A stretch of 64,000 nucleotides of DNA from an uncultured SAR86 cluster bacterium (GTDB lineage: Bacteria; Pseudomonadota; Gammaproteobacteria; Magnimaribacterales; D2472). Both the position numbers and the translations under genes were made by a program. The notes below the pieces were generated by a model. It was not told the origin of the DNA. It worked only from the letters and a program-made list of their open reading frames with translations, and did no database searches. The stretch covers positions 1,621 to 65,620 of the forward strand of contig CACKNK010000006.1 of NCBI GenBank assembly GCA_902601475.1, read 5' to 3'. Shown in pieces: positions 1,453 through 58,241 of this stretch; within the stretch, counting starts at the first letter, position 1; every line of letters starts with the position of its first letter.

Positions 1453-1875
1453 ATGGCTATTGAGCGCACACTATCAATCATTAAACCTGATGCAACTTCT
1501 AGAAATATTATCGGAAAAATAATAAGCAGATTCGAAGACAATAACTTAAAAGTTGTTGCTGCTAAACTAATTCAGTTAGATCAAGCTAAAGCAGGTGGCT
1601 TTTATTCAGAGCATGATGGAAAACCATTTTTTCAGAACCTAATTGAATATATGACATCGGCTCCTGTTCTCGTTCAAGTTTTAGAGGGTGAATCAGCTAT
1701 AGCCAAAAATAGAGAGTTGATGGGAGCAACCAATCCACAAGATGCGGCTCCTGGAACAATTAGAGCAGATTTTGCAGAATCCATAGATGCTAATGCTGTG
1801 CATGGATCAGACTCTGAATCTAGTGCATTACGGGAGATAAATTATTTCTTCGAGCCCGAAGAAATTGTTAGTTGA
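1453..1875 (+). CDS. ndk: nucleoside diphosphate kinase
   Basis: [10 protein letters not shown], active-site [15 protein letters not shown] upstream. Confidence 0.95.
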
Positions 1876-2966: not shown

Positions 2967-2968
2967 TT

Positions 2969-4913: not shown

Positions 4914-4915
4914 AG

Positions 4916-6154
4916 ATGAAATTTAAATCACTAAGAGGGATGGATGATCTTTTTTCAATTGACCTGGCTAAATGGCAAACCCTAGAAACTGCGTTTAAAT
5001 CTGTATTCTTAAAATTTAATGCAGGTGAGGTAAGAAATCCCATGCTTGAATCTACAGATCTGTTTGCTCGTTCAGTAGGATCATCATCAGATATTGTTAA
5101 TAAAGAACTATATACATTTAATGATAGAAATGATGAGAGTATCTCACTCAGACCTGAAGGAACTGCTGGGTTGGTTAGGTCTTTAATAGAATCTAAGAAA
5201 GATAATGATACTGGAAAATATTGGTATCAGGGTCCAATGTTTAGATATGAGAGACCTCAGAAAGGCCGATTGAGACAATTTCATCAAGTCGGTGTCGAGT
5301 ATGTTGGATTTGAAGAGGGTCATGCAGAATTTGAAATAATGTCTCTAGTTATTGCTTTGATTAATTCAGTCAAAATCAAACATTACAACATTAAAATAAA
5401 TCATCTTGGTAACAGTAAAGTAAAACAAAAATTTACAAACGCTCTAGTTGAATATATGCAACAATTTGAAGGTGAACTATCTGATCTTGAGCTAACAAGG
5501 CTTGGCACTAACCCACTCAGAATTCTTGATTCAAAAGATCCAAAAACTCTTAAAATTCTTGAAAAATCTCCGTCTTATACTGATTATCTTGAACCCGATC
5601 ATCTATCTATATTAAATAACTTATTGGATGATTTTGATGAATCAAACATAACTATAGATCCAAAATTAGTAAGGGGTTTAGATTATTACACTGGATTCAT
5701 ATTTGAGGTAACTTCAAAAGAATTAGGATCTCAAGATTCGTTTATTGGAGGAGGAAGGTATGATAGTTTATTCTCATCTTTGGGGGGTAAAGACATTCCT
5801 GCAATAGGGTTTGCAATTGGCTTAGAGAGGATGATTGATATTATGCCAGAGTCTCCAAAAGCAAATAAGAAAGTATTTATTGTTAATTTAACTAGTAATA
5901 ATTCAAGATATCCATATAAAATAGCCCAAAATTTGCGTTCATTAGATACAAATATTGTTATTGAAGACCCATTATTAACTTCAAGCGCTAAGTCGCAATT
6001 AAGACGTGCAAATAAAGCTGGTGCTTCAGCAGCATTGATTATAGGGGACGATGAAGTTTCTAAAAACGAAGTTATTTGGAAAGATTTAGACGATAAAATC
6101 GAGCAACAATCTCTTTCATTGGATGAATTGATAAATAAGTTTAAAAAGTTATAG
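4916..6154 (+). CDS. hisS: histidine--tRNA ligase
   Basis: Class II motifs LRPEGTAG, FRYERPQKGRLRQFHQ, GGGRYD. Confidence 0.95.
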   Translation: MKFKSLRGMDDLFSIDLAKWQTLETAFKSVFLKFNAGEVRNPMLESTDLFARSVGSSSDIVNKELYTFNDRNDESISLRPEGTAGLVRSLIESKKDNDTGKYWYQGPMFRYERPQKGRLRQFHQVGVEYVGFEEGHAEFEIMSLVIALINSVKIKHYNIKINHLGNSKVKQKFTNALVEYMQQFEGELSDLELTRLGTNPLRILDSKDPKTLKILEKSPSYTDYLEPDHLSILNNLLDDFDESNITIDPKLVRGLDYYTGFIFEVTSKELGSQDSFIGGGRYDSLFSSLGGKDIPAIGFAIGLERMIDIMPESPKANKKVFIVNLTSNNSRYPYKIAQNLRSLDTNIVIEDPLLTSSAKSQLRRANKAGASAALIIGDDEVSKNEVIWKDLDDKIEQQSLSLDELINKFKKL

Positions 6155-6162
6155 GCTTAAAT

Positions 6163-6798
6163 ATGGTTGAATATAGAACTGACGAAGAAAGGCTTTCAGC
6201 AATAATTAATTTCTTTAATGATTATAAGAAATTTTTTGTGTGGGGCAGTGTTGGCCTTTTCCTAGTAGTATTAGTCTTTATTTCTGTATCTAATTTCCGT
6301 GCAAATCAAAATTCTATAGCTTACTCAGTCTATTCAAAGTGGTCAGAAATTGATTTTTCTGATGAAAGCAAAGCTATGGAGGCAGATGGCCTTTTTAATT
6401 TACTTCAAGATGATTACTCATCAACAGGGTTTTCAAACTTAGCCTTAGTAATTGAATCTTCAAGGCTTGCAGAAGAGAAAAACCTTGATGCTGCATTGGA
6501 TTTACTTTATAAGTTAAAAAATAAAACAAGCAGAGGTAACTTATTTAATTTAATTGCCAATTTAAATATTGGAAGAATAGAAATTGTGAATGGTAACTTC
6601 GATCTTGCTTTAAAAGCGCTTGATGCAATCTCTTTAGATAAGGAAAATGCCACAGTTGCATCTCTCAAAGGGGATGCCTTGCGCGGTCTTGGACGACTTG
6701 AATTAGCCGAAGCTCAATATACAAAAGCCATCGACCTTTCTCAGATAGCAGAGGAGCGAGCTGTTGCAGAATATAAACTAAAACTCCTTAGTCAATGA
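6163..6798 (+). CDS. yfgM: YfgM-like membrane-anchored TPR-type protein
   Basis: N-terminal TM anchor followed by a helical TPR-like region. Conserved hisS-yfgM-bamB-der position. Confidence 0.7.
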   Translation: MVEYRTDEERLSAIINFFNDYKKFFVWGSVGLFLVVLVFISVSNFRANQNSIAYSVYSKWSEIDFSDESKAMEADGLFNLLQDDYSSTGFSNLALVIESSRLAEEKNLDAALDLLYKLKNKTSRGNLFNLIANLNIGRIEIVNGNFDLALKALDAISLDKENATVASLKGDALRGLGRLELAEAQYTKAIDLSQIAEERAVAEYKLKLLSQ

Positions 6799-7934
6799 TA
6801 AAAATAATTCTTAATTTAGCTCTATTTTTATTTATATCCAGCTGCTCGATATTGAATTTTTGGGCAGATGATGAGGAGAACTTAGAGGAGCCTAGGCCTT
6901 TAGTTGATATTCAGCCATCAGTGGAATTAGATAGGTCATGGTCAAGAAATTTTAACTCTGATAATGAATTAGGTAATTACCGACCAGGTTTTAGTGGTGA
7001 AACCATTTTAATTACTACAGAAGAGGGTGAGCTTTTCAGAGTTGATGCCAATAGAGGAAATATTCTTCAAAAAGATAAATTAAATCATAGCGTTTCTGTT
7101 TCCAATGCTGTTGGCTTTGGAAAAATTGTATTTGCTGATTCAAAGGGTTCTGTTCATGCCTATTCGTTGGAAGATTCATCATTTTTATGGTCAAGCAATG
7201 TAGGCTCGGAGATACTAGCTTTACCTGCTATTGATGCGAAAGCAGTTATTGTTCATACATCTGGCGGTGAGTTGGTTGCCCTGAACCCTAGTTCAGGTGA
7301 AAAGATCTGGACATATCGATCTCAATTACCCTCCTTAACTGTTAGAGGTAACAGTATTCCCGTAGTTGCAGATAATTTAGTTTACGCAACATTTGATAAT
7401 GGAAGAATCGGAGTTTTTGATATTGGAAGTGGTTTTTCTATTTGGGACGGTCCAATCTCATACAAAGAGGGAACTTCAGAATTAGAAAATTTAATTGATG
7501 CAGATTCATCACCAGTTATTGAGGGAGGCTTAGTTTTTGCAACAAACTTTCAGGGAAACTTAACAGCATTTGATCCCTCTCAAAGAAGGGCTGTTTGGAG
7601 TACAGATGCATCATCTTTTCATTCTCCTTTGATCATTAAAGGATTAATTATTGTTATGAATAATAATGGATCAATTATTTCTTTCTCAGGTCAAACCCTA
7701 TCAGAGTCATGGACCAATGAAGAATATCTTAGACGAGGCCTTAGTAATGCTACTGAGCATGATGGAAATGTTGTGTTTGGTGACATTGAAGGATATCTTC
7801 ATGTAATAAACCCTCTAACCGGAAGAACAGTTGGCAGAGAAAAAATTTCAGGTAATCCAATTCGTTATGTTTCCAGCAGAGGAAATCAATTATTCGCATT
7901 AGATAGCGAATTAAGAATGTTTGCTTTAAATTAG
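6795..7934 (+). CDS. bamB: outer membrane protein assembly factor BamB (lipoprotein, beta-propeller)
   Basis: Lipobox FISSC. Repeated PQQ-like propeller blades. Synteny. Confidence 0.85.
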   Translation: MIKIILNLALFLFISSCSILNFWADDEENLEEPRPLVDIQPSVELDRSWSRNFNSDNELGNYRPGFSGETILITTEEGELFRVDANRGNILQKDKLNHSVSVSNAVGFGKIVFADSKGSVHAYSLEDSSFLWSSNVGSEILALPAIDAKAVIVHTSGGELVALNPSSGEKIWTYRSQLPSLTVRGNSIPVVADNLVYATFDNGRIGVFDIGSGFSIWDGPISYKEGTSELENLIDADSSPVIEGGLVFATNFQGNLTAFDPSQRRAVWSTDASSFHSPLIIKGLIIVMNNNGSIISFSGQTLSESWTNEEYLRRGLSNATEHDGNVVFGDIEGYLHVINPLTGRTVGREKISGNPIRYVSSRGNQLFALDSELRMFALN

Positions 7935-7948
7935 AATGAATTGTAATC

Positions 7949-9346
7949 ATGATTTCTTCGGTAGCAATAATTGGAAAGCCCAACGTAGGCAAATCTTCAA
8001 TATTTAACAAACTAACCGCCAGTAGGTCAGCAATTGTTTCAAATTTTTCTGGTGTTACTAAAGACCGAAACATTGGTTACCTAAAAACATCTACTAAAAA
8101 AAAATACCTCATTATCGACACCGGAGGAATTGGCGAAACGGAAGATGGTCTTCAAAACTCAATTTCTGCACAAGCTTGGTTTGCTGCAGAAGATAGTGAT
8201 CTTGTTCTTTTTGTTATTGATGGATCTATAGAGTTATCATCAGAAGATCTTGAAATTCTCTCCAAGCTAAGAAAGAGCAACATAGATTTTAAAGTTGTAA
8301 TCAATAAAGCAGATATAAAGAAACAATCTGCTGCAAAAAATGACTTAATTAAAAAAGGGATCAAAGAATTTATTCATGTGAGTGCAGAACACTCTATTGG
8401 TTTTAACGAGTTAATAAATACAATTAAATCTTCTATTAAACCAACGATTGACTCTTTTAGTGAAAGTGACAGCATTCAAGTTGCTGTAATTGGAAGACCT
8501 AATAGTGGTAAATCTACTTTTATAAATTCTGTAACCAAAGACAATAGAGTTATTGTTTCAAATACACCAGGAACTACCATTGACAGTATCGATGTTCCCT
8601 TCAAGCTAGATGATCAAACCTTTACCCTGATAGATACTGCAGGCATCCGAAAAAAGAATAAAAAAGGAAGCAACATTGAATTTTTCTCATACGTAAAAAC
8701 TATTGAGGCAATTTCTAGGTCTCGTATTGTTCTAGTATTCATTGATGCAGATCAAAATTTGGTTGATCAAGATTTTAAAATCTTAAATTTAGCTAAACTC
8801 GAGGGCAAGCCAATCATATTGGTAATAAATAAAATAGATTTAATTTCAAAATCTAATGAAAAAAAATTATTTGAGGATTTAAATTATAAAAATCCTATTT
8901 TAAAAAACATCCAGATAGTAAAAATATCTGCACTGCATTCAAAAGGACTTCATTATCTATTCAAGGTTATCAACGAAACCAATAATAGAGCTGAATCTTC
9001 ATTTACGACTTCAAGGCTAAATAAATTATTAGATGAAGCGATTTCAAAAATTAATCAACCTTCAAAGAGAGGTAAGTCTATAAAATTAAGATATATTAAT
9101 TTTGGAGGTAAATACCCAACCACATTCATAATCCACTCTAACTTTTCTAATTCACAAATACCCAATCATTTAAGAAGATACTTAATTAACTTCTTTTATG
9201 AAAAATTAGATCTTAAAGGCATTGAATTAAGTCTGCTCTTCAAAAAAGGCAATAACCCATTTGAGGGTAAAAAGAATAAGCTAACAGATAGGCAAATTAA
9301 GAAGAAAAAAAGACTTATGAAGTTTACGAAAAAGTCAAAAAAGTAG
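7949..9346 (+). CDS. der: ribosome-biogenesis GTPase Der (EngA)
   Basis: Two G-domains (GKPNVGKSS and GRPNSGKST, DTGG/DTAG, NKAD/NKID) plus a Lys-rich C-terminal tail. Confidence 0.95.
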   Translation: MISSVAIIGKPNVGKSSIFNKLTASRSAIVSNFSGVTKDRNIGYLKTSTKKKYLIIDTGGIGETEDGLQNSISAQAWFAAEDSDLVLFVIDGSIELSSEDLEILSKLRKSNIDFKVVINKADIKKQSAAKNDLIKKGIKEFIHVSAEHSIGFNELINTIKSSIKPTIDSFSESDSIQVAVIGRPNSGKSTFINSVTKDNRVIVSNTPGTTIDSIDVPFKLDDQTFTLIDTAGIRKKNKKGSNIEFFSYVKTIEAISRSRIVLVFIDADQNLVDQDFKILNLAKLEGKPIILVINKIDLISKSNEKKLFEDLNYKNPILKNIQIVKISALHSKGLHYLFKVINETNNRAESSFTTSRLNKLLDEAISKINQPSKRGKSIKLRYINFGGKYPTTFIIHSNFSNSQIPNHLRRYLINFFYEKLDLKGIELSLLFKKGNNPFEGKKNKLTDRQIKKKKRLMKFTKKSKK

Positions 9347-9404
9347 CGATTATTTTATAAATAAGACGTATAATTAGTTATAAGATCCTCTAATAAGTAA
9401 ACAA

Positions 9405-9794
9405 ATGTCCCAAAAAATTGTTGATAGACCTGTAAATATTAACTTATTTAAAATAAAGCTGCCCATGTCAGCCCTTATTTCTATTACTCATAGGCTTTCC
9501 GGAATTTATGTTTTTTTTGTTACTCTTCCATTAGCCATAATTCTATTCCAGAAAGCATTAACAGAATTATCATACGATTCCATGTCCTTATTAATTCAAA
9601 CAAGTGGTATTTTCTCAACATTTGTCTATTTTAGTTTTCTTATTTTTCTCTATCACATCTTGACTGGTTTTAGGCATTTACTGATGGATGTACACATAGG
9701 CGAAAATTTAAAAGCTTCAAATATGAGTGCTGTCTTTGTAATAAGTTTCTGGTTGGTTGTTTCAATTTTTGCTTTATTTGGATTTCAAATATGA
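9405..9794 (+). CDS. sdhC: succinate dehydrogenase cytochrome b556 subunit
   Basis: Small 3-TM protein with the HR.SG motif (ITHRLSG). First gene of the sdhCDAB set. Confidence 0.85.
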   Translation: MSQKIVDRPVNINLFKIKLPMSALISITHRLSGIYVFFVTLPLAIILFQKALTELSYDSMSLLIQTSGIFSTFVYFSFLIFLYHILTGFRHLLMDVHIGENLKASNMSAVFVISFWLVVSIFALFGFQI

Positions 9795-10150
9795 GTGGCG
9801 CTTCAATATGGTACCTTCAAAGATTTTCTGCTCTGTTAAATCTAATATATGCCTTGTGGCTTGGAAGTTTTTTTGTTTTCAACGAAATAACATTTGAGGT
9901 TTGGTCTGTTTTTTCTTCAGCATTGATGTTTAAGACCCTAACTACTTTGGTAATTGCCTCTATTATCATCCACTCTGTTATTGGTCTCTGGACAGTTGGA
10001 ACTGATTATCTAACACCAAGAACACTTGGATTTATTTCAAGTCGTCTTGGAGGTTATGCCAACCACTTCAGAGTAATGTATCAATTATTTTTCATTACTC
10101 TTTCAGTAACTCTAATGCTCATAACTTTATTTCTAATCTGGTGGTCATAA
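9791..10150 (+). CDS. sdhD: succinate dehydrogenase hydrophobic membrane anchor
   Basis: 119-aa 3-TM protein between sdhC and sdhA, with 4-nt overlap. Confidence 0.8.
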
Positions 10151-10151
10151 A

Positions 10152-11939
10152 ATGGTAGGTCATTTAAACAAAGATAATATTCAAACATTAGAATTTGATG
10201 CTTTAATTGTTGGGGGCGGTGGTTCTGGAATGCGCACTTCACTTGAGCTTGCTAAATCTGGACTTAAGACAGCTGTAGTATCAAAAGTTTTTCCAACAAG
10301 ATCTCATACAGTTTCTGCTCAGGGTGGAATTACATGTGCGATCCAAAGCGCTGATCCAAATGATGATTGGAGATGGCATATGTTTGATACTGTAAAAGGC
10401 TCAGACTACATCGGTGACCAAGATGCGATTGAATATATGTGTTCGGAAGGACCAAAGGCTGTTTTTGAGTTAGAACATATGGGCTTACCTTTCTCAAGGT
10501 TTGAAAATGGACGTATCTATCAAAGACCATTTGGAGGGCAGTCAAAGGATTTTGGAAATGGGGGACAGGCATCAAGAACCTGTGCTGCAGCAGATAGAAC
10601 AGGCCATGCTCTTCTTCATACTCTTTATCAAAACAATGTTAAGGAAGGCGCAAATTTTTTAAATGAATGGTTTGCTGTTGACTTGGTTAAAAACAAATTC
10701 AGTGAGGTAACGGGCGTAATTGCTTTTTCAATAGAGTCAGGTGAAGTTGCGTATCTTAAGTCTCGTGCAACTGTTCTTGCAACAGGTGGGGCTGGAAGGA
10801 TTTATGCTTCAACTACAAATGCTTTGATTAACACAGGTGATGGATTGGGAATGTCATTAAGAGCAGGTTTTCCAGCTCAAGATATGGAGATGTGGCAATT
10901 CCATCCAACAGGTATTCACGGTGCAGGCTCTCTCGTCACAGAGGGTTGCAGAGGAGAGGGTGGCTATCTAATAAATGCTGACGGAGAAAGATTCATGGAA
11001 AGATATGCTCCTAATGCAAAAGATCTAGCAGGTCGAGATGTTGTTGCTCGATCGATGGTGCTGGAAATACTTGAAGGCAGGGGATGCGGTCCCAATAAGG
11101 ATCATGTTTTGTTAAAACTGGATCATTTGGGTGAGGAGGTTTTAAATGCGAAGCTTCCAGGTATTTGTGAACTCTCAAAAACCTTTGCTGGAGTAGATCC
11201 TGTCTACAAACCCATTCCAGTTGTACCAACCTGTCACTACATGATGGGAGGAACTCCAACGAATATTCATGGTCAAGCATTTACATCTGAAAATGAAATT
11301 GATAATGAGGTTCCTGGTTTATTCTCAGTCGGCGAAGCTGCCTGTGTAAGCGTGCATGGTGCAAATAGACTGGGTGGTAACTCATTACTGGATCTTGTCG
11401 TTTTTGGAAGAGCTGCGGGACTTCATATTAACGAGGATTTAAAATCCGGTGGCGGCGTAGAAGAAGCGAATAGTGATGATATTGAATCAGCTCTTCACAG
11501 GCTTAATAAGCTTAATGAATCTAATTCTGGCTTTGAAGTAGCTGAAGTTAAAAGGGAACTTCAAGAAGTAATGCAGAATTACTTTGGAGTCTTCAGGCGC
11601 GGTGAGTTTATGGAAAAAGGAGTTCAGGCTCTTGAAGAAATAAGAAATAAGTGTGACAACTTACATCTTCATGACAAGAGCGAATCCTTTAATACAAACC
11701 GAGTAGAGGCATTAGAGCTGCAGAATTTACTTGAGGTTGCTGAAGCCACCGCAATCTCCTCCCTCAAGCGAAATGAGAGCCGTGGAGCACATGCCAGAGA
11801 TGATTTTCCTGAAAGAGATGATGAAAATTGGCTCTGTCATTCTCTTTATGATCCTATTAAGAAAGATTTAAAAAAGAGACAAGTTAATTTTGAACCTAAA
11901 ACAATGGAAGCATTCCCTCCGAAGGTTAGGGCCTATTAG
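10152..11939 (+). CDS. sdhA: succinate dehydrogenase flavoprotein subunit
   Basis: GGGGSGMR dinucleotide fold, [10 protein letters not shown] (covalent FAD His), [15 protein letters not shown]. Confidence 0.97.
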
Positions 11940-11954
11940 CACAGAGGATTAGAG

Positions 11955-12701
11955 ATGATTGAAGTAAATATTTATAGATACAATCCTGAGACTGATAAAT
12001 TCCCTTACATGCAGAAGTTTAACTTTGAGATGCCTGATCGAGACATCATGGTTCTTGAGTTATTAAACACTCTCAAAGAATCTGATCCCACTATTTCGTA
12101 CAGAAGATCCTGTCGAGAGGGTGTATGTGGCTCAGATGGCATGAGTATTAATGGCAAAAATGGACTAGCTTGTATTACACCAGTTTCAGAGGTTGCTAAA
12201 GGCAATAAGCTTGAGTTAAGACCTTTGCCAGGACTCCCTGTTGTTAGAGATCTGGTGGTTGATATGACAGAGTTTTACGCACAATACGAAAAGATAAAAC
12301 CCTTTTTACAGAATGATACACCTCCACCCAATCAAGAGCGTCTTCAATCTCCAAGTGATCGTGACAAGCTAGATGGTTTATATGAATGTATTTTATGTGC
12401 ATGTTGTTCAACCAGCTGTCCTTCATTTTGGTGGAATCCAGATAAGTTTGTTGGTCCTGCTGCATTGCTTCAAGCTTATCGATTTATAGCTGATACCCGA
12501 GATACTCGAACCGAAGAAAGATTAGAGTCATTATCTGATCCGTTTAGTGTTTATCGATGTCATGGAATTATGAACTGTGTAAGTGTCTGTCCAAAAGGCC
12601 TCAATCCCAACAAAGCTATTGGAGAAATTAAATCAATGCTTCTAACCAATAAACGTCATGAGGCTGAGATTATTGCATCCGATGGAGGTGGGAGAAGTTA
12701 G
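11955..12701 (+). CDS. sdhB: succinate dehydrogenase iron-sulfur subunit
   Basis: Three Cys clusters: CREGVCGSDGM, CILCACCSTSCP, CHGIMNCVSVCP. Confidence 0.97.
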   Translation: MIEVNIYRYNPETDKFPYMQKFNFEMPDRDIMVLELLNTLKESDPTISYRRSCREGVCGSDGMSINGKNGLACITPVSEVAKGNKLELRPLPGLPVVRDLVVDMTEFYAQYEKIKPFLQNDTPPPNQERLQSPSDRDKLDGLYECILCACCSTSCPSFWWNPDKFVGPAALLQAYRFIADTRDTRTEERLESLSDPFSVYRCHGIMNCVSVCPKGLNPNKAIGEIKSMLLTNKRHEAEIIASDGGGRS

Positions 12702-15514
12702 ATGAGCAGCATGGGGGAGTTTTGGTCAAGTTCTCATACTGCAGGAGGAAATGGCTCCTATTTAGAAGGCCTATTTGAATCTTACTTAGATGACCCAGCT
12801 AGCGTTCCAGAAGATTGGAAAAACTATTTTGATAGTCTTCCAAGCAATCCCTCAGGAACAGATACCTCACATGCAAAAGTCATTGAAAGGTTTAGAAACT
12901 ATAAAAGCAAAGTGTCTTCATCTGTAAAACCTATCAATGAAAAACAAATAAGAGTTCTTCAGTTAATACAGTCTTACAGGAATAGAGGCCATATGAAATC
13001 CTCTTTAGATCCTTTGAACCTCCAAGAGTATGCTCAATGTGATGACTTAACTCTTGAATATCATGGCCTTAATCAAGAAGATCTAGGAAGCATTTTTCAA
13101 ACAGACACCCTTAATATTGGAAAAGAAAGCACGTCTTTATCTGAAATAATTCAATCGCTCGAAAGAATTTACTGTAATACGTTAGGCATTGAATACAACT
13201 ACATTACCAGTGAAGTCGAGAGGAAGTGGTTTCAATCCAGATTAGAGCCAGGCGTTGGAAAAATTAAGCTCTCAAATGAAGAAAGAATTTATATTCTTAA
13301 ACGACTTGGAGCTGCTGACGGACTAGCAAAGTTTTTGGCATCAAGGTATCCAGGAATGAAAAGGTTTGGAATTGAGGGAGCAGAATCATTAATACCTCTC
13401 ATTGATAGCCTCGTTCAGAATACTGGAATTTTTGGTGCTCAACAAATATGTTTTGGGATGGCTCATAGAGGTAGACTTAACTTATTGGTCAACGTTTTAG
13501 GAAAATCACCTAAAGATCTATTCATTGAGTTTGAGGAAGGCTATGAGCTAACTGGAGATAATACTGGTGATGTAAAATATCACTTAGGTGTCTCATCCAA
13601 CATACTAACTCCTAATGGTGAGGTCCATGTTTCTCTGAACAATAATCCATCTCACTTAGAAATAGTGAATCCTGTAATACTTGGCTCAGTGAGGGCAAGA
13701 CAAGATCGCTTGGGGGATACTGAAAGAGAAAAAGTAATACCAATATTAATTCATGGAGATGCATCTTTTTCAGGTCAAGGCGTGGTAATGGAATCGCTGC
13801 AAATGTCTCAAACCAGAGCATATGGGGTCGGTGGAGCCATCCACGTAATTGTTAACAATCAGATCGGTTTCACCACTTCCAACAAAGAAGATGCAAGATC
13901 AACGCATTATTCAACTGACGTAGCTAAAATGATTGAGGCTCCAATTCTGCATGTTAATGCTGATGATCCTGAGATGGTTGTATTTGCAGCAAAACTCGCC
14001 TGTGAGTACAGACATACTTTTAAAAAGGATATTGTTATAGACATGGTCTGTTTCAGACGAAGAGGTCATAACGAAACCGATGATCCATCTCAGACTCAAC
14101 CACAAATGTATCAAGCTGTTGCGTCACATCCTGGAATTAAAAAGCTCTATCAAGATCAACTTATTGAGGATAACGTGATAAGTCTTGATGAATGTAAAAA
14201 TTTTGAAAAAAAATATAGAGAAACTATTGAGCAAGGAGAGTCTGTTGCACATAATCTTGCTACAAAGCCTAATGAATCAATGTGGTTTGATTGGAATCCC
14301 TACATGAATCAAGAATGGTGGGATTTTGCTGATACCACATTTAATCCTAAACAATTCGCTAAACTTGGCTCCATAATTTCATCAATTCCCGAAGGCTTTG
14401 AACTTCAAAAACCCGTAACAAAACTTTTTGAAGATAGGCAAAAAATGAATAACGGAGAAGCTAAGATTAACTGGGGTTTTGCTGAAATAATGGCGTATGC
14501 AACTCTACTCCATGAGGGCTATCCAGTAAGACTGACTGGTCAGGATGTTAGGAGGGGAACTTTTTCTCATCGTCATGCTGTTGTTCACAATAAAATAGAT
14601 GGAAATGCTGAGATGCCATTAATGCAAATTGCTGATCAGTCAAAAACAAATTTAGAAATCTACGATTCTTTATTATCTGAGGAAGCTGTTCTGGGGTTTG
14701 AGTATGGATATTCTGCAACGTGGCCATCAGGACTAGTGATTTGGGAAGCTCAATTTGGTGACTTTGCTAATGGAGCTCAAGTAGTTATAGATCAATTCAT
14801 AGTATCTGCTGAGCATAAATGGGAAAGACTATCTGGTTTGGTTATGCTTCTACCTCATGGATATGAGGGTCAAGGTCCTGAGCATAGCTCAGCTAGACTT
14901 GAGAGATTTCTTCAGCTTTGTGCCTTCAAGAATATACAAGTTTGTGTTCCAAGCACTCCGTCACAAATATTTCACCTACTAAGACAACAGGCAAAAAGAA
15001 ACTTGAGGAAACCTCTTATAATTTTTTCCCCCAAAAGCTTACTTCGAAATCCAGACGCTGTTTCTACCCTTGAGGATCTGACGAGTGGTACTTATGAGCT
15101 TGTTATTAATGATGGTGATGATGAGGAGTCGGAAATCAAAAAGGTGGTTATGTGCTCAGGAAAACTTTACTACGATTTAAAGACAAAGCAACGAGAACTT
15201 GAAGACAAAACTACTGCTCTCATAAGGATTGAACAGCTTTATCCATTTCCATACGATGAGCTTGAGGATGCTATAAAGAAATATCCTAATGTATCAGAGT
15301 TTATCTGGGCTCAAGAAGAGCCAGCCAATCAAGGAGCATGGTTTAGTCATCGCCATCGCATACAAAGAGTTCTAGATAGATTGAAGAAAAATTTTGTCAT
15401 TGATCTACGAAGCAGGCCAGCTGCTGCAGCACCTGCAGTAGGCTTAAATAAACTACATGTTAAGCAGCAACAAGAATTAGTAGATCAAGTATTTAGTGTT
15501 TTGGAGAAAATAAA

Positions 15515-15518
<4 letters not shown>
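12702..15518 (+). CDS. sucA: 2-oxoglutarate dehydrogenase E1 component
   Basis: 938 aa. Conserved [40 protein letters not shown]. Confidence 0.97.
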
Positions 15519-19366
<3,848 letters not shown>

Positions 19367-43846: not shown

Positions 43847-44719
43847 ATGGTAGTAATTAGACTTGCAAAGAGTGGGGCAAAGAAAAACCCATATTTCTTT
43901 ATCACAGTAGCTGACTCTAGAATGCCTAGAGACGGTAGATTCATAGAAAGACTAGGTTTTTACAACCCATCTGCAAGAGGTTCTGAGGAAAGACTTCGTT
44001 TTAATACTGAGCGCTTTGATCATTGGGTCGGCCAAGGTGCACAAGTTTCAGATCGTGTGAAGGTTTTGCATCAAGAGGCTGAAATGTCTCCTGAAGATCT
44101 GGCTGCTAAATTCGAAAAAAGGGATTCTAAACGTCAAGCAAAAAAAGAAGCTAAAGCAGCAAAACTTGCAGAAGAAATGGCTGCATCTGAAGAGGCTGCA
44201 CCGGCAGAAGAGACTCCAGTAGAAGAAGCTCCAGCCGAAGAAGCCGCACCAGCAGAAGAAGCTCCAGCTGAGGAAGAAGCTCCAGCCGAAGAAGCTGCAC
44301 CAGCAGAAGAGGCTCCAGCTGAAGAAGCTGCACCTGCAGAAGAGGCTCCAGCTGAAGATGCTGCACCCGCAGAAGAGGCTCCAGTAGAAGAAGCTCCAGC
44401 TGAAGAAGAAGCTCCAGCTGAAGAAGCTGCACCAGCAGAAGAGGCTCCAGCTGAAGAAGCTGCACCTGCAGAAGAGGCTCCAGCTGAAGAAGCTGCACCA
44501 GCAGAAGAGGCTCCAGTAGAAGAAGCTCCAGCTGAAGAAGAAGCTCCAGCTGAAGAAGCTGCACCAGCAGAAGAGGCTCCAGCTGAAGAAGCTGCACCTG
44601 CAGAAGAGGCTCCAGCTGAAGAAGCTGCACCAGCAGAAGAGGCTCCAGTAGAAGAAGCTCCAGCTGAAGAAGAAGCTCCAGCTGAAGAAGATTCTCCATC
44701 AGATGACGAAAAGAAGTAA
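43847..44719 (+). CDS. rpsP: 30S ribosomal protein S16 with an approx. 210-aa acidic Glu/Ala/Pro-rich C-terminal extension
   Basis: First ~80 aa are canonical S16 ([35 protein letters not shown]). The same frame continues through ([11 protein letters not shown])n to TAA at 44717-44719. Confidence 0.9.
44216..44690 (+). repeat. coding tandem repeat in the rpsP tail: 132-bp unit (4 x 33-bp sub-units)
   Basis: 44381-44512 and 44513-44644 are identical base for base (checked by hand). 44645-44690 is a 46-nt partial third copy. 44216-44380 is a diverged 165-bp copy. Confidence 0.95.
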
Positions 44720-51542: not shown

Positions 51543-54500
51543 TTGCAGAGAATTTATTCAAAACTACTTTTATTAACACTATTTAGCACCTCCATTGTTG
51601 CTCAAGAGCAAATTGGTGTGGCTGCTGCAGTCAACCGTAATACTACTGACCTAACGCTGGAACAAGAAAGAAAACTCGTTGAAGCGGGTTATCAAATCAT
51701 TCAAAACCATACCATTGAAACCGATGAAATCGGTAAAGCTCAGATGCTCTTACTCGATGGAACCGCTTTCTCAGTTGGACCTAATTCAAGCGTGGTGCTT
51801 GATCGTTTTATTTATAATCCGGAAACAGCGGAAGGTTCCTTAGAAGTAACCGCACGAGGTCTTTTAAGAATTGTTGGTGGAAAGGTCACCAAAAAACAAC
51901 CCGCGCTGATAAGAACTAATTCAGCAACTGTGGGGATCAGAGGCGGAATCGGAATTGTCCAAACCGATGGCTCGCAAGTCAATGCGACCTTCTTGTACGG
52001 TGAGGAAATGACAGTGACCCCAAATTGTGTGGATCTTGATACGTTTGGCGATCAATGCGGTAGCGATTTTATTACCACCATCACCGAACCAGGTTTTTCA
52101 GTGACGGTTGAGTCAGCTGACTCTGAACCTTCAGAACCTGAGCCGGTAACTGAAGAAAGCTTAGAAGCCGTTCAAGATGAATTAGAGGCCAGTGAAGATG
52201 AGCCAGCCGAAGAAGAATCTTCAAGTGATGAATCTTCTTCAGAAGAAAGCTCTGATGAATCAAGTTCTGAAGAGTCCTCAAGCGAAGAGAGTTCAGATGA
52301 GTCTAGCTCAGAGGAATCTTCAAGCGAAGAGAGTTCTGATGAATCCTCTAGTGAAGAAAGCTCAGATGATTCAAGTTCTGACGAATCATCTAGTGATGAG
52401 TCCTCCTCAGATGAGTCTTCCAGCGATGAATCTTCTGCTGATGATTCAGTTGCCAGCGATAGCTCATCCGATGATGCATCTTCAGATTCATCAAGTGATG
52501 AACCTACTAATGAAGTTGCTCAAGAAACAGAATCAGATACTGAAGTTACGACTGAAGTTGCTGATGCTGGTGGTGATGGTGGAACAACTGAAGTTGAAGT
52601 TGATGAGGGACTTTTAGATAGCTCTGGAGTCTCTGATGTTTCTTCTGATGTGGCCCCTGATGAACTGGGTACCGCCGATGCGTTTGAAGTTGAAACCGAA
52701 GTTGATTTAGTTGATGTGGATGAGAGTCCAGCCGAAGAAGTCACCGAAGAAGTTGCGCAAACCACCCAAGAAACCACTGCAGAGGTCGCACCCATTTTTG
52801 AAGTGGAAACTACTGAAGTGGTTGAAAGTGTCGATGAAAATACGACTGAGATCAGCTTGGCATCTTTTGCTGTAGTCAATCCAGGCGATCAAAACTTTAC
52901 TGTGTCTGTCGAAGGTGAGGGCAGTGAGGCCTTTACTTATAACGAAGCAACCAACTCCTTAGAAATTACTGAAGCTTTGGATCATGAAAGCCAAGAAGCG
53001 GTTGAACTGACCGTGACCTTTACCAGCGAAAATGGTGATGTTCAAGAAGTTGCCTTAGCTTTAAATGTTGCTGATGTGGATGAAGCCGTTGAACTTGCTG
53101 TTGAACCGGTCAACACCATTAGTGAAGCTGCTATTAGTGCTGAACTCGTTGCCAATCAGGTCAATGTATCTGAAACGGTACCCGCTGGAACTGTGGTGGC
53201 TACTTTTAGTGCCACTGATCCTGAGGGCAATGCCTTAACTTATTCATTAACTGGAGCCGGTAGTGAACTGATGAGCGTTTCTGAAACCGGAGAAGTGACC
53301 CTTACTGGTAATCTAGATTTTGAAACGAATTCAACCCTAGTCATGACATTGGAAGTCTCTGATGGGACTAATACCACCACCGAAGAAATTACTATTAACG
53401 TTATTAACGATGATGAGCCTGCCACCATTGCAGCGACTTTAAGTGCTACCTCATTTGCAGAAAACTCTGCTGTGGGAGCTGCCATTGCATCGGTGAATGC
53501 CACCGATCCTGAAGGCAGTGCGGTGACTTACACATTATCAGGCACAGGCAGCGATAACTTTAGTATTGATACCAGCGGTAACATTACTCTTGCCAGCACC
53601 TTGGATTATGAAACGACAACCTCATATGAACTAACCGTCGTTGTCGATGATGGCACTTATGCTTCTACTGAAGTCATCACCGTGAGTGTTGCCGACGTCA
53701 ATGAAGCCCCAACATTAAGCGCAACGGTAGCCTTCAACGCTTTCCAAGAAAATACTGCTACCGGTACCACGATTGCTACGAGTTCAGTCACCGATCCGGA
53801 GGCAGGAGCCATTACGTACAGTCTTTCTGGCACCGGCAGTGAGAACTTTTCAGTCAGTTCTGATGGTACGGTGAGTTTAGCGAGCACCCTGGATTATGAA
53901 ACTGCCACTGGATATGAAATTACCCTAACAGCCTCCGATGGCGATAATACCGTTTCTGAAATCCTCACTATCAATGTGGGCGATATTAATGAAGCGCCAA
54001 CCGTTACCACAACTCTAGCAACCTCAAGTGTTGCAGAAGATGCAGCCACCGGAACTACCGTTGCGACCAGCACAGCAAGCGATCCAGAGTCCAGCACCAT
54101 CACTTATTCACTCAGCGGAACCGGTAGTGATAACTTTAGCGTTGATGCCAACGGTAATGTCACTGTGGCTAGTAGCTTAGATTATGAAACGACCACCTCT
54201 TATACCATTACTTTAACCGCTAGCGACGGGTCCAATTCAACCCAAGAAACCATCACCATTAATGTCAGTGACGTGGATGAATTTACTCTGGCACTTTCAA
54301 GTACGTCACCTGCTATTAACGAAGGCGTCAGCACTGGAACTCAAGTCGCTACTTCAACCTTAACCCAGCAAGACAGTGCTTCAGTAACTTATTCTTTATC
54401 AGGTACTGGCAGCGATAAGTTTGCCATTTCCAGCAGTGGGGTGATTACCACCGCAGCAGCGATGGATTTTGAAACCACCTCATCCTATTCACTCACTGTA

Positions 54501-57500
54501 ACTGTCACTGATGGGACTAATACTGATACTGAAACCATTAATATTAGTATTAATAATGTTTCTCTTAATACTCTAGCAACCACTTTAGCCAACAGCGGGG
54601 CAGCGCTGGCTGAATCATCCAGCTCAGGCACAGCTGTTGCTAGCTCCAGCATCAACAACCCCGACAGTGAAACGATTACCTATACGCTAAGCGGTACCGG
54701 TAGCAACAAATTCTCTGTTGATTCATCAGGAAATGTGACCACTAACGGAACGCTGGATTTTGAAACGGCTAAAAGCTATGCGCTAACTCTAACCGCCACT
54801 GCAGGCAGCACGTCAGTGACCGACACCTTTACAGTTAATGTCGGTAACGTAGCTGAGCTTAATGCAGCGGTGCTTCGCTATTCAGCAGCTTACAACTCAG
54901 TTTCACGCACTGGCTTTAGTGCCACTGCAACGCGAGGAGCTTCAGGATCGAGCTTACCAGCCTACTACTTAGAGCAAGTTGGTACGACTGCCACAACAAA
55001 TTTCAATGATGTTTTTGATCATGACGGTGATGTTCGAAACAACCATAGCCCTACAGTTAGAGTGGAAATTGGTGGTGGAACCCAACTTAACTTTGAGTAT
55101 ATTTTTCCAATAACCTCTCTTGGGGGCGCTGCAGGGGTTTATGCTCCAAGTATGTACGGCAGTTATGGTGTTGTGAATACAACTGTTCTCGGTAATAATG
55201 CTGCATATAGAGGGATTCTGACCAACCAAATATTAGCGGCTGCTGACGTGGTTGGTACTACCGGAAATTCACCTACCATAACTGATAATGAGATTGTAAG
55301 TGCCGGTGCATTCATGCAATATTCGGGATCAGGAAACGGCGTAAACGCATCAACAGGCGGCGATTTCGCCTTTATGACAACAAATTTAGCTGGTGCGTCT
55401 CTAAGCTACCAATCCTCAAGTGGACAACGCACGTATGGAGTCATTGTTGGTGATACTTCAACAAGTTACGGTAGCGGTTACACTGGAGTGGGCAGCTATT
55501 GGCAAAATGCGATTACCGGAGCTGGCTACACATTTCAAAATTGTGTGGCTGCCAACGTTAAGACTTGTCTTAATAATGCAGGCATTGATCTTGATGATGT
55601 AGGAATTATCGTAAATAACAGCCCTGGTACCGTTACATTTGGTTATAGCTACAGTGAACTTGCCGATTGGATTGATGGTGGAGGAAATTATGCTGCCACC
55701 ATGTGGGAACATTCGGGTTGGAGCACAAGAGGTATGAATGGCGACCAACATGAAGATATTTTTGCAGGCCTTGGGTGGAGTGGTTTTAGTGGTAATACCG
55801 TTGGTGGCCACGTAAGTCCTAGTACTTCAATTTCACAATCAACTGTTGATGCAATCACTAATGGCGGAGGTACTTTAAATTATTCAGCCCTTGTAGGTAG
55901 AACTCACTCCTTCAATGCGGCCGGGATTATGAACATCCCATCAGTTTGTAACTCTTTGGTAAATGGGACAATTAGTGGTGCCAGCGGCGCTTCAACTTTC
56001 ATCTGTGATCCAGGACGAACCGGTTCAAACGGTGCTGTTTTAGGGGTAGCAGATTACAATGCGTATACGTCTTCAGGTAGTGGTAATTCATTCATCATGA
56101 ATTGGTTTGCGGGTTTGAATATTGGCTCTGCAGTCACTTCCACCTACAACCTCTTTGAAGATCAAACAACTTTAGCAGGTCAAATTTATACCGATGCCAT
56201 GTGGGACACATTTGTTGGTTGTACTTCTGGTGATTGCTCTGATAAGTTTTCAGGAAATATACTTTATTTTGCTGTATTGCCTATTGAGTATCTAGGCACC
56301 AGTCTTAACTTAGATTCTGATAACTGGTTTTATCCTAACTTTATGCCCATGACCAATTCAAACATTTGGACCTATGGAGACGTGGGGTTACGTTATTGCT
56401 CTCCAGGAGCCAATGCTGGTTCTGAATGTTCCAGCCATACCTATGATGATGCTTATGCATGGCAATCGCTAGCCTTAAATCCTGTGTCCTCCTCAAGCCT
56501 CCACACAAATTCAAGAGAATATGATGTGGGGGGGAATGATATTCCTGAGGGCTCAAGCTTCTTTAAGCAAATGGTTAAATATGATGGAGTGGGTGTCGGG
56601 ATGTGGGCACAAATTTCCTTCGCTGACTCATATGCCGACGATAGTGATGCCAGTAATACTAGAGATGATCAACAAAGCTTACTCAATGTAGTAATCACAA
56701 ACATGAATCGACGCAGCAACATGACCTCGATGTACTCAGCCGGAGACAGCGGTTTTGGGATGGATGGTTATCATTATTGGTCCTATCAAGGGGCGACCAA
56801 TGCCAATGATAATGGTCTCGGAGTTGTTTACGGTACGTCACCGGTAGAATGCGCTACTTCCAATGAAACTGCTTGTTTCTGGGCACCGGATGCTAAAGAG
56901 TCAGCCGGCGGTACCGGCAATCCTTCAGACACTGCAGCTCCAAGTGCAATGTTCTTAACGTCTTCAGATCCATATGCATCAGGAAATATGGGATTAGGTG
57001 TTTCTTATAACGCTAACACCGATGCTTTTTTAACCGGTTCTTTTAATCAGGCTTTAATCAGACAAAATGTAAAAAATGGCAATGGTAATTGGCGGTCTTA
57101 CACCGATACCAGTACTTATCGAAAAACTAATTTAGGTCAGAACTCTTTCCCATCAAGCGGCTCGAGCACTTCAGGCACTTTAGATTGGAGTGGGTACTTT
57201 AATGGTATTTTGGAGTTTGATGTAAGCGGTGCCAGCAACAATCAATTCGCTTCCATTGGAACAGGCAGTACCCGAGCAAGCTTTACTTTTAATTATGGCA
57301 CTAACTTTGCTGAGGTCGTGGCGCCAATGGATATTACTGCATTTGCTTCAAATAATTACACAGCAAATTGGACCACTGTTGATACTGGCTCGATGACCTT
57401 AAAATTTGGAGACCTTGACAATACCGATGCAAAATCTGCATTTTTAGCCAATAAAGTTTTTGCTGCTGAAATTCAAGATGATGGCACACAGATTGATAGT

Positions 57501-58241
57501 ACTTCTGGTGGTTCCAACAATCTCGCTGGCGTTATGGTTACTTGGCAGAGCCTTGATAATCCTGATTCAACTTTGTACAACGGAATGTCGAATGTAGGTA
57601 ATGGCGATGCATTTAGTGATACTCAAGGGAATGCTAACTACGCATCATGGGGTTTTTGGGCTATGAGTTCTGCTGATATTGCTGTAGCTACCGGCGATCA
57701 AAACGCCTCGGTGCATTTAGGTACCTGGGTTGGCGGAGAACTCATCGATCAAAGTTTAATTCCAACCTCAGGATCGGCAAATATGAATGGAGGGGCAGTG
57801 TTTAATGTGGCTTATCGACATAATGCAAGCGGCACTGATTACGACGTGCATAAATACACCAGCACCGCAGATGTTAGCGCAACTTTTAATTGGGGTACAA
57901 GCGGATATTCAGGATCTATAACTTTTGAAAACTTTGATGATAAGAATCCAATTGTAGCGAATGCCGGCTTCTTTGATATCAATGGTTTCTTTACAGTGCC
58001 AATTGTTGGCACCGATCAACATTACAGCGGGAGCCTAACACCAAGCATGCAAAATGGCTGGTCGGGCACTGCATCAGTCAAGGGAAGTCTTTACGGCGGT
58101 CAATATACTGCGTATGGGGTTACACATACAGTGAGAGAAAGCGGAGGAAGCTTTGACGTAAATATTTACAAGACTGGCGATACTTCAACTGCTGGAGCTA
58201 ATGATTTTTATACGGCAGAAGGTATTTATTTAATCTATTAA
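51543..58241 (+). CDS. giant secreted surface/adhesin-like protein (2,232 aa): signal peptide, FecR-like domain, poly-Ser/Asp/Glu tract, cadherin-like repeats, large unassigned C-terminal region
   Basis: Uninterrupted 6.7-kb ORF. TTG start with GGGAG about 10 nt upstream. Signal peptide MQRIYSKLLLLTLFSTSIVA. Repeats visible by eye in the translation. Confidence 0.9.
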   Translation: MQRIYSKLLLLTLFSTSIVAQEQIGVAAAVNRNTTDLTLEQERKLVEAGYQIIQNHTIETDEIGKAQMLLLDGTAFSVGPNSSVVLDRFIYNPETAEGSLEVTARGLLRIVGGKVTKKQPALIRTNSATVGIRGGIGIVQTDGSQVNATFLYGEEMTVTPNCVDLDTFGDQCGSDFITTITEPGFSVTVESADSEPSEPEPVTEESLEAVQDELEASEDEPAEEESSSDESSSEESSDESSSEESSSEESSDESSSEESSSEESSDESSSEESSDDSSSDESSSDESSSDESSSDESSADDSVASDSSSDDASSDSSSDEPTNEVAQETESDTEVTTEVADAGGDGGTTEVEVDEGLLDSSGVSDVSSDVAPDELGTADAFEVETEVDLVDVDESPAEEVTEEVAQTTQETTAEVAPIFEVETTEVVESVDENTTEISLASFAVVNPGDQNFTVSVEGEGSEAFTYNEATNSLEITEALDHESQEAVELTVTFTSENGDVQEVALALNVADVDEAVELAVEPVNTISEAAISAELVANQVNVSETVPAGTVVATFSATDPEGNALTYSLTGAGSELMSVSETGEVTLTGNLDFETNSTLVMTLEVSDGTNTTTEEITINVINDDEPATIAATLSATSFAENSAVGAAIASVNATDPEGSAVTYTLSGTGSDNFSIDTSGNITLASTLDYETTTSYELTVVVDDGTYASTEVITVSVADVNEAPTLSATVAFNAFQENTATGTTIATSSVTDPEAGAITYSLSGTGSENFSVSSDGTVSLASTLDYETATGYEITLTASDGDNTVSEILTINVGDINEAPTVTTTLATSSVAEDAATGTTVATSTASDPESSTITYSLSGTGSDNFSVDANGNVTVASSLDYETTTSYTITLTASDGSNSTQETITINVSDVDEFTLALSSTSPAINEGVSTGTQVATSTLTQQDSASVTYSLSGTGSDKFAISSSGVITTAAAMDFETTSSYSLTVTVTDGTNTDTETINISINNVSLNTLATTLANSGAALAESSSSGTAVASSSINNPDSETITYTLSGTGSNKFSVDSSGNVTTNGTLDFETAKSYALTLTATAGSTSVTDTFTVNVGNVAELNAAVLRYSAAYNSVSRTGFSATATRGASGSSLPAYYLEQVGTTATTNFNDVFDHDGDVRNNHSPTVRVEIGGGTQLNFEYIFPITSLGGAAGVYAPSMYGSYGVVNTTVLGNNAAYRGILTNQILAAADVVGTTGNSPTITDNEIVSAGAFMQYSGSGNGVNASTGGDFAFMTTNLAGASLSYQSSSGQRTYGVIVGDTSTSYGSGYTGVGSYWQNAITGAGYTFQNCVAANVKTCLNNAGIDLDDVGIIVNNSPGTVTFGYSYSELADWIDGGGNYAATMWEHSGWSTRGMNGDQHEDIFAGLGWSGFSGNTVGGHVSPSTSISQSTVDAITNGGGTLNYSALVGRTHSFNAAGIMNIPSVCNSLVNGTISGASGASTFICDPGRTGSNGAVLGVADYNAYTSSGSGNSFIMNWFAGLNIGSAVTSTYNLFEDQTTLAGQIYTDAMWDTFVGCTSGDCSDKFSGNILYFAVLPIEYLGTSLNLDSDNWFYPNFMPMTNSNIWTYGDVGLRYCSPGANAGSECSSHTYDDAYAWQSLALNPVSSSSLHTNSREYDVGGNDIPEGSSFFKQMVKYDGVGVGMWAQISFADSYADDSDASNTRDDQQSLLNVVITNMNRRSNMTSMYSAGDSGFGMDGYHYWSYQGATNANDNGLGVVYGTSPVECATSNETACFWAPDAKESAGGTGNPSDTAAPSAMFLTSSDPYASGNMGLGVSYNANTDAFLTGSFNQALIRQNVKNGNGNWRSYTDTSTYRKTNLGQNSFPSSGSSTSGTLDWSGYFNGILEFDVSGASNNQFASIGTGSTRASFTFNYGTNFAEVVAPMDITAFASNNYTANWTTVDTGSMTLKFGDLDNTDAKSAFLANKVFAAEIQDDGTQIDSTSGGSNNLAGVMVTWQSLDNPDSTLYNGMSNVGNGDAFSDTQGNANYASWGFWAMSSADIAVATGDQNASVHLGTWVGGELIDQSLIPTSGSANMNGGAVFNVAYRHNASGTDYDVHKYTSTADVSATFNWGTSGYSGSITFENFDDKNPIVANAGFFDINGFFTVPIVGTDQHYSGSLTPSMQNGWSGTASVKGSLYGGQYTAYGVTHTVRESGGSFDVNIYKTGDTSTAGANDFYTAEGIYLIY
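51690..52020 (+). other. FecR-like beta-sandwich domain of the giant protein (approximate bounds)
   Basis: GKAQMLLLDGTAFSVGPNSSVVLDRFIYNP...LEVTARGLLRIVGGKV...ATVGIRGG resembles FecR/LipL45-type domains (pattern recognition only). Confidence 0.5.
52190..52505 (+). repeat. poly-Ser/Asp/Glu low-complexity coding tract: (SSSEE-SSDE-SSSEE)x3 then (SSSDE)x4
   Basis: About 105 aa, nearly all S, D or E. Peptide repeats are exact but encoded with different Ser/Glu/Asp codons in each unit. Confidence 0.95.
52855..54860 (+). repeat. tandem array of cadherin-like domains (1 degenerate + 6 clear, ~97 aa each)
   Basis: Recurring V.E...GT.VAT..ATDPE....TYSLSGTGS..F.....G.VT....LDYET..SY.LT..A.DG......I.INV.DVNEAP. 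Approximate unit boundaries: 53160, 53441, 53723, 54013, 54294, 54583. Confidence 0.8.
57640..58238 (+). other. C-terminal beta-barrel-like module of the giant protein (TbpB-type or OM-anchor-type; speculative)
   Basis: Alternating-residue strands separated by Gly/Asn/Ser turns (GSANMNGGAVFNV, VSATFNWGTSGYSGSITF, ASVKGSLYGG, YTAEGIYLIY) with a terminal aromatic residue. Confidence 0.35.

Follow-up and report, generated by a model that had tools for sequence, protein, structure and literature searches.

A Ser/Asp/Glu tract in a giant SAR86 protein: an old acidic linker, probably part of a polyanionic tether selected for composition

We analysed a stretch of DNA of 64,000 nucleotides (nt; hereafter the window) from an uncultured bacterium of the SAR86 cluster (GenBank assembly GCA_902601475.1, contig CACKNK010000006.1, positions 1,621 to 65,620, forward strand). 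An earlier note on this DNA had pointed to a tract of almost only serine, aspartate and glutamate inside a long open reading frame (ORF), in which identical peptide repeats are encoded by different codons. We find that the tract is an ordinary acidic low-complexity linker. Age and purifying selection account for its codon pattern, and what selection favours appears to be charge and composition, in flavours that differ between lineages, rather than the exact peptide. The tract probably is the Ser-rich part of a polyanionic disordered tether of ∼235 residues, itself under selection for composition, in a predicted secreted protein of 2232 amino acids (aa). The tract is real, in frame and as first described; its elements are (window coordinates throughout):

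51543-58241, + strand: host ORF, 2232 codons
52218-52502, + strand: Ser/Asp/Glu tract, aa 226-320; 20 blocks, mostly S2-3[DE]2, with 91 of 95 residues S, D or E
52233-52358, + strand: three 42-nt units, aa 231-272, each encoding the peptide SSSEESSDESSSEE; 67-74% DNA identity
52233-52274, 52275-52316 and 52317-52358, + strand: limits of the three 42-nt units
52371-52430, + strand: four 15-nt units coding for SSSDE, aa 277-296; pairwise DNA identity 53-73%

Besides 53 Ser, 17 Asp and 21 Glu, the tract holds only A299, V303, A304 and A312, and it is devoid of Lys, Arg and His. Its blocks follow the order SSSDE, (SSSEE-SSDE-SSSEE) x3, SSDD, (SSSDE) x4, SSADD, SVASD, SSSDD, ASSD, SSSDE, exactly as the earlier note had read it, and the codons quoted there for units 1-3 were correct. 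The ∼105 residues given in that note are reached only by adding the upstream EASEDEPAEEE to the strict tract of 95 aa. Each 42-nt unit consists of one 15-nt and one 27-nt block. Upon alignment, the three units differed pairwise at 14, 12 and 11 of 42 nt and shared 2, 6 and 7 of 14 codons; only synonymous differences occur, and the peptide is identical, as had been claimed. Tandem Repeats Finder gave a weak signal at the DNA level (period 42, 2.5 copies, 80% match; period 27, 2.4 copies, 76% match). No second copy of the gene or the tract was found within the window.

The 14-aa periodicity of the peptide is real and exceeds chance. When the order of the S2-3[DE]2 blocks was shuffled, an exact 3 x 14-aa repeat arose with P = 0.0005-0.0015, and with P = 0.012 when blocks were drawn independently; of 5000 residue shuffles, none reached the observed repeat. 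The 'scrambling' of the codons does not go beyond random synonymous choice, with third positions at saturation. Mean DNA identity of the units was 0.706, compared with 0.66 ± 0.05 or 0.63 ± 0.05 in random synonymous redraws based on the codon usage of the tract or of the gene respectively. The longest exact direct repeat in the tract (17 nt; expected 15.1 ± 2.8) and the number of codons shared between units were likewise ordinary against such redraws. Selection for dissimilar codon order was rejected on these simulations. Selection on mRNA structure, a candidate in view of the complementarity of the Ser codons UCU and UCA to the Glu codon GAA, was also rejected, the predicted folding energy being ordinary: −91.2 kcal/mol versus −96.6 ± 5.5 kcal/mol for synonymous permutations (within one standard deviation), and z = −1.3 relative to dinucleotide shuffles.

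The earlier note had hinted that codon differences between identical units might be selected against slippage or recombination, and one could extend this to mRNA structure. Consistent with such selection, adjacent identical codons are slightly scarce (9 versus 12.8 ± 2.6 expected, P = 0.095), exact direct repeats are never longer than 17 nt, and the repeat in the rpsP gene of the same window is 95% identical at the DNA level, so homogenisation is possible in this genome. Unit identity, repeat length, codon sharing and folding energy all fell within the random expectation, however, and relatives of the gene frequently gain or lose whole units in frame. One intact relative (L003) even carries 6.0 copies of a 27-nt unit that match by 88%. 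Together with a recent recombination event across the tract (below), these results run counter to the suggestion, and we regard selection on codon differences as highly improbable.

The rpsP repeat deserves a brief description. The gene (ribosomal protein S16, 43847-44719) encodes an acidic C-terminal tail of ∼190 aa built of 11-residue repeats, and its repeat region (44179-44690) comprises 15.5 copies of a 33-nt unit or 3.9 copies of a 132-nt higher-order unit. The rpsP repeat is young and homogenised, unlike the old Ser/Asp/Glu tract.

The codons of the tract are not fully scrambled, as the two Ser codon families, TCN and AGY, are still periodic. The 16 AGY codons are spread over 16 of the 20 blocks, with no block holding two of them (P = 0.0015), and all four blocks with two Ser begin with AGY (P = 0.006). 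A single synonymous change cannot turn TCN into AGY or the reverse, and the periodicity is therefore a relic of repeat units at the DNA level. Their consensus is TCN TCN AGY GAR GAR (15 nt) followed by AGY TCN GAY GAR (12 nt), together 27 nt, and start-to-start spacings alternate between 15 and 27 nt, which fits the 42-nt unit as 27 + 15.

For relatives of the host gene, a scan of species-representative genomes returned 74 loci, mostly from single-cell genomes of the SAR86 cluster; loci L003-L007 and L014 constitute the window's own clade. Within the clade, DNA identity to the tract is 81-89%, equal to that of the upstream flank coding for a FecR-like module (80-86%) and of the 450 nt downstream (81-90%), and the tract is therefore inherited sequence and not a hypermutable patch. 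Unit-specific codon choices (e.g. TCA AGT TCT and TCT AGC TCA) are common to genes of ∼84-89% DNA identity; hence the units predate these lineages, and the repeats are old, as the earlier note had claimed. In a codon-aware nucleotide alignment, synonymous divergence (dS) of the tract was 0.5-1.0 and nonsynonymous divergence (dN) 0.02-0.09, giving dN/dS ratios of 0.02-0.12; this alignment was used because a protein-based MAFFT alignment misaligned blocks and inflated nonsynonymous change. Amino acid replacements within the clade are nearly only exchanges of D and E, and of S with T, N, G or A. All alignment gaps in the tract are multiples of 3 nt, including gaps of 3, 12, 15, 27 and 57 nt.

Two further frames are open over the tract, one on the + strand (52192-52617, +1 frame; 141 aa, Lys-rich) and one on the reverse strand (52172-52504; likewise rich in Ser, Asp, Glu and Leu), because Ser and Glu codons are mutually complementary. 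Substitutions among relatives are synonymous in the main frame, and the +1 frame is therefore unconstrained; an overlapping gene at 52192-52617 was rejected, its openness being a by-product of codon composition.

Gain and loss of units is evident among these genes. In relatives, the SSSEE, SSDE, SSEE and SSSDE blocks differ in order and number, and the exact 14-aa repeat is not conserved; two database proteins (P0009 and P0011) have one SSDE-SSSEE block pair fewer than the window. In L003, the relative whose N-terminal protein sequence comes closest to that of the window (99% identity), four of the 27-nt copies are nearly identical while the gene is otherwise open. This array is a recent slippage expansion, and slippage is thus tolerated. 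The tract also seems to have travelled by recombination. A metagenome contig (L079) has hom, thrC and an acetyltransferase gene followed by the giant gene, as in the window, and is 91.6% identical overall. Its tract is 99.4% identical to that of the window without gaps, with two differences in 351 nt including the tract, and lies in a patch of near identity:

51850-52500, + strand, ∼650 nt: recombination patch relative to L079; 99-100% identity, flanks 82-98%

The patch includes the last part of the FecR module and all of the tract, stopping at the 3′ edge of the latter. By this identity profile, it appears to have been exchanged recently by homologous recombination, which argues against a tract built to resist recombination.

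Across the wider family, what persists is acidity. In distant clades the tract is replaced by (EEES)n, (EEEES)n, EETPAEETQ-type and other sequence, in which Ser can fall to 4-8%. In 36 members, we measured the linker from the FecR module to a conserved downstream motif (VDE.LLDSSGVSD.SSD). Its length ranges from 23 to 203 aa and its Ser content from 4% to 45%, at a charge of −0.35 to −0.56 per residue, with 0-2% Lys plus Arg and at most 9% hydrophobic residues. An acidic linker was found in every SAR86 locus read through that position. In the window, the tract is embedded in a longer region of the same character:

52188-52892, + strand: acidic disordered region, aa 216-450; net charge −83, free of Lys, Arg and His
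52593-52679, + strand: motif VEVDEGLLDSSGVSDVSSDVAPDELGTAD within the disordered region, the only stretch of the linker that most SAR86 clades retain

AlphaFold2 (24 sequences) predicted aa 216-450 with a local confidence score (pLDDT) below 50 and without secondary structure. The disorder and the strongly acidic linker in every measured member agree with the proposal of a polyanionic spacer. The proposal that the peptide is held by selection stands for its composition, given the dN/dS of 0.02-0.12, and fails for the exact 14-aa peptide, which varies in relatives. A sequence-specific role finds no support: orthologues replace the tract freely, an outcome that the earlier note had itself named as speaking against such a role.

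That the tract is functionless low-complexity filler generated by slippage is very unlikely. Free replacement between clades and the wide range of linker lengths would be expected of neutral filler, but the low dN/dS at near-saturated dS, the exclusion of Lys and Arg from all measured family linkers, and the presence of a linker in every SAR86 locus read through the position would not.

Two observations weigh against selection for composition alone. Estimates of dN/dS in low-complexity sequence vary with the alignment, and Ser is strongly conserved within the clade, with only 1-4 Ser replacements per 53 Ser codons at a dS of ∼0.7; this conservation could point to a Ser-specific role such as modification. 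In that case the Ser clusters would be phosphorylated or O-glycosylated, and the tract would be a module that binds Ca2+, Fe3+ or mineral or that shields from proteases. Its composition would suit this, as 36 of the 53 Ser are in an S-x-[DE] context. Against it, the acidity of the linker is constant in the family at Ser contents anywhere between 4% and 45%, no kinase or glycosyltransferase was found among the conserved neighbours of the family, and a free-living planktonic cell would have no evident use for mineral binding. Moreover, the periplasm and the exterior of Gram-negative bacteria are not known to have an ATP-dependent kinase system. We consider modification of the tract unlikely.

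Known Ser-rich acidic proteins offer likenesses of varying closeness. Caseins and phosphophoryn belong to the eukaryotic secretory pathway, where Golgi kinases phosphorylate them. The tract shares dense Ser beside acidic residues with them and with the (DSS)n repeats of the latter, and it contains SSSEE literally, six times; this is a likeness of composition and motif and not homology. No kinase was found among the conserved neighbours of the giant genes, and other clades of the family can do without Ser. In calcium-sensitive caseins, SSSEE binds calcium through phosphoserines (PMC10004547).

The nearest functional analogue is the SD-repeat region of staphylococcal surface proteins, of which the tract is not a member. 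Both are long low-complexity segments of Ser and acidic residues, set between a functional domain and the remainder of a surface protein, and in both the number of repeats varies between strains. An 18-bp unit, GAYTCNGAYTCNGAYAGY, codes for the SD repeat; at regular intervals AGY appears between its TCN codons, a pattern that resembles the single AGY per block in the tract. In ClfA, ClfB and the Sdr proteins, the SD repeats have been proposed to serve as a Ser-acidic spacer or stalk of the adhesin; their Ser residues are glycosylated by SdgA and SdgB, which protects from proteolysis (PMC3794999) and would favour modification by analogy. SD repeats are strict SD dipeptides, whereas the tract is mostly S2-3[DE]2 with more Glu (21) than Asp (17); the staphylococcal proteins carry a Gram-positive LPXTG anchor, whereas the gammaproteobacterial SAR86 protein ends in ...GIYLIY; and no glycosyltransferase counterpart of SdgA/SdgB lies near the giant genes. 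There is no sequence homology between the two.

Serine-rich repeat glycoproteins (SRRPs) of Gram-positive cocci were also compared. Their repeats are built of dipeptide-type units of S with A, V, T or E and run for hundreds to thousands of residues, and the proteins rely on accessory SecA2/Y2 export, linked glycosyltransferases and an LPXTG anchor. A long Ser-rich adhesin stalk is what they have in common with the tract. Neither a SecA2/SecY2 locus, nor linked glycosyltransferases, nor an LPXTG anchor as in Fap1, GspB and SraP was found at the window or paralogue loci. SRRPs as a class are mentioned in PMC7846122.

Protein databases are misleading with regard to this family. All 168 protein-database homologues of the N-terminal module are 393 aa or shorter, and in many of them the reading frame changes within the acidic tract. 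Together with the existence of paralogues with near-identical N-termini, this would be compatible with the tract or its long ORF being an assembly artefact. In the two contigs with truncated homologues that we examined, both error-prone long-read '_pilon' assemblies, the whole gene is fragmented, as is trmD in one of them. Truncation and frameshifts of the database homologues are thus assembly noise, not frameshifting biology; the homologues are all fragments because the gene holds an acidic tract and cadherin repeats. Frameshifting or phase variation in the tract was rejected on the same '_pilon' fragmentation and on the repeat units being all multiples of 3 nt, as well as on the intact ORFs of 2038-2663 aa in single-cell genomes. 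The window ORF itself is open for 6.7 kb. Its arrangement is confirmed independently by the near-identical tract of L079 in the same synteny and by a database protein (P0005) with the same block order, including the 3 x 14-aa repeat; furthermore, in L001 the genes between the acetyltransferase gene and prfB, both included, are arranged as in the window, and P0121 matches the C-terminal 446 aa with 100% identity. We therefore give virtually no credence to an artefact.

The protein that carries the tract belongs to a giant-protein family that is specific to, and found throughout, the SAR86 cluster. Intact genes in SAR86 single-cell genomes encode 2038-2663 aa with the same architecture as the window protein, and many SAR86 genomes hold at least two paralogues. 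Some of these are in tandem, as in L011 (one copy at 10037-16429, the next starting at 16601) and L053 (a copy at 1826-9685, upstream of the match). Two loci are filed under other organisms although the gene is of the SAR86 type (L014, 'Marinovum sp. MED682'; L061, 'Methanobacteriota archaeon NP83'), and these labels probably reflect mis-binned metagenome-assembled genomes. The literature on SAR86 together with cadherin or FecR, including the paper on the first SAR86 isolate, yielded nothing on the family.

In the window protein, whose mature form has a net charge of −249, the acidic region separates the following domains:

51543-51605, + strand: predicted Sec signal peptide MQRIYSKLLLLTLFSTSIVAQ, read from the sequence, with a putative cleavage site
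51711-52001, + strand: FecR domain, aa 57-153 (Pfam PF04773, 27.8 bits versus a cutoff of 24)
53100-55140 (approximate limits), + strand: about seven cadherin-like repeats
57177-58238, + strand: C-terminal beta-rich domain with a predicted TbpB/HpuA/LbpB-like fold (handle and beta-barrel; AlphaFold2 and Foldseek)

The first 30 residues contain no Cys, and the N-terminus thus lacks a lipobox and is not a lipoprotein signal. PF04773 is also carried by the database homologues, in support of the FecR assignment. The N-terminal module as a whole (aa 1-215; 51543-52187) is extremely conserved, with dN/dS of 0.01-0.05 at a dS of ∼1 and 94-99% protein identity between paralogues that are only 44-84% identical elsewhere. 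A comparison of the N-terminus with the NCBIfam model of the LapA retention module remained below threshold (E = 0.014, 15.6 bits versus a cutoff of 50). The cadherin array matches Pfam Cadherin (PF00028) with E = 1.9e-72 and 240 bits over six stretches, the best at aa 829-908, and displays LD[FY]E motifs at a spacing of ∼96 aa. Between the array and the C-terminal domain lies a middle region that is the unassigned part of the architecture.

For the C-terminal 446 aa, AlphaFold2 (39 sequences) gave a model with a mean pLDDT of 72, exceeding 80 for most of the last 170 residues, and a predicted template modelling score (pTM) of 0.77. The top 22 Foldseek matches of this model in the PDB were TbpB, HpuA and LbpB (E = 4e-6 to 1e-4, probability 0.90-1.0), with low template modelling (TM) scores of 0.16-0.26. 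No sequence match of the domain was found in Pfam or the PDB. The predicted TbpB-like fold is a lead, not proof.

Taken as a tether, the acidic region would join the extremely conserved FecR-like module to a variable body of cadherin repeats and the TbpB-like C-terminal domain. The tract itself goes back to tandem DNA units of 12, 15 and 27 nt, whose third positions have since drifted to saturation while the two Ser codon families still mark the original units. Selection purges basic, hydrophobic and foreign residues and permits Asp/Glu swaps as well as in-frame gain and loss of units. Charge repulsion and the scarcity of hydrophobic residues may keep the segment extended, hydrated and non-sticky; the absence of Lys and Arg should leave few sites for trypsin-like proteases, and Ca2+ or Mg2+ could be held loosely as counter-ions in sea water. 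Such a segment could act as a spacer of adjustable length between a conserved docking module and a Ca2+-dependent cadherin stalk.

In the window, the giant gene is flanked by a GNAT acetyltransferase gene, with hom and thrC, on one side; on the other come a CMD-family gene and then prfB and lysS. Most paralogue loci have a different set of conserved genes upstream, namely a TetR regulator, a DUF481 outer-membrane protein, a divergent CHASE2-guanylate cyclase and a TPR protein, as seen in loci L005-L019, L023-L028 and L057 (e.g. L007:8524-9915 and L005:5635-7824); an ion channel is likewise among the conserved neighbours of the family. A protein of 360-460 aa is encoded upstream of the giant gene in 21 loci, on the same strand in 19 of them, and nearly all of ten such proteins scanned had TPR matches in Pfam. 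Judging by sequence, their C-terminal half is presumably an outer-membrane beta-barrel. One member passed the SlipAM (Slam/DUF560) cutoff with 24.6 versus 22 bits, and there were three weak TPR_Slam matches (E ∼0.007). The Slam-like, CHASE2, DUF481 and TetR set was not found near the window gene within the 64 kb.

The upstream synteny of the window (xerD, dsbC, hom, thrC, GNAT) corresponds to one class of loci (L003, L004, L020 and L045). Its downstream synteny (CMD-family gene, prfB, lysS) recurs in the metagenome-assembled genome TMED104 (L005), after a paralogue of the other class, the one preceded by the Slam-like and CHASE2 genes. A deletion or a recombination event between two paralogues may have given rise to the window lineage.

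The TbpB-like fold and the Slam-like neighbours together suggest, on modelled structure and distant matches, export of the giant protein by a translocon of the Slam or type 11 secretion system (T11SS) kind. LapA-type adhesins have an N-terminal retention module that acts as a plug. By extension, the giant protein could be a new, very large cargo of this type, with the acidic tract threaded through the outer-membrane translocon or lying just outside it. The C-terminal TbpB-like domain would lead export, the FecR-like module would fold in the periplasm as a retention plug, and the unfoldable polyanionic linker would be the tether, its length tuned by gain and loss of units. We propose this because of the TbpB-like fold, the Slam-like neighbours of the paralogues, the low dN/dS of the FecR module and the sub-threshold LapA match, and hold it to be a long shot. 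Known or predicted Slam/T11SS cargo has a C-terminal beta-barrel and often disordered N-terminal regions (PMC12282271). The host protein is similar in its disordered N-terminal region and in that its paralogues adjoin a putative Slam-like outer-membrane protein; in contrast, known cargo measures a few hundred residues and is often lipidated, while the host has 2232 aa and no lipobox, and FecR and cadherin modules are not mentioned in the same survey of T11SS cargo (PMC12282271). Among proteins of the TbpB fold, LbpB is the nearest analogue, its fold being one of those that the C-terminal domain of the host is predicted to resemble. Its flexible anionic regions are thought to protect against cationic peptides (PMC7857515), but they are loops of the C-lobe and not a linker after an N-terminal domain.

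Collectively, the tract is a clean example of how acidic linkers evolve, with charge and composition selected and not sequence, and identical peptides with different codons need no explanation beyond age. The host family, combining FecR, an acidic tether, cadherin repeats and a TbpB-like domain, is the more interesting lead. It is effectively missing in full-length form from protein databases although it is abundant in one of the ocean's commonest bacteria, and it may reveal by what means SAR86 presents proteins of very large size on its surface.

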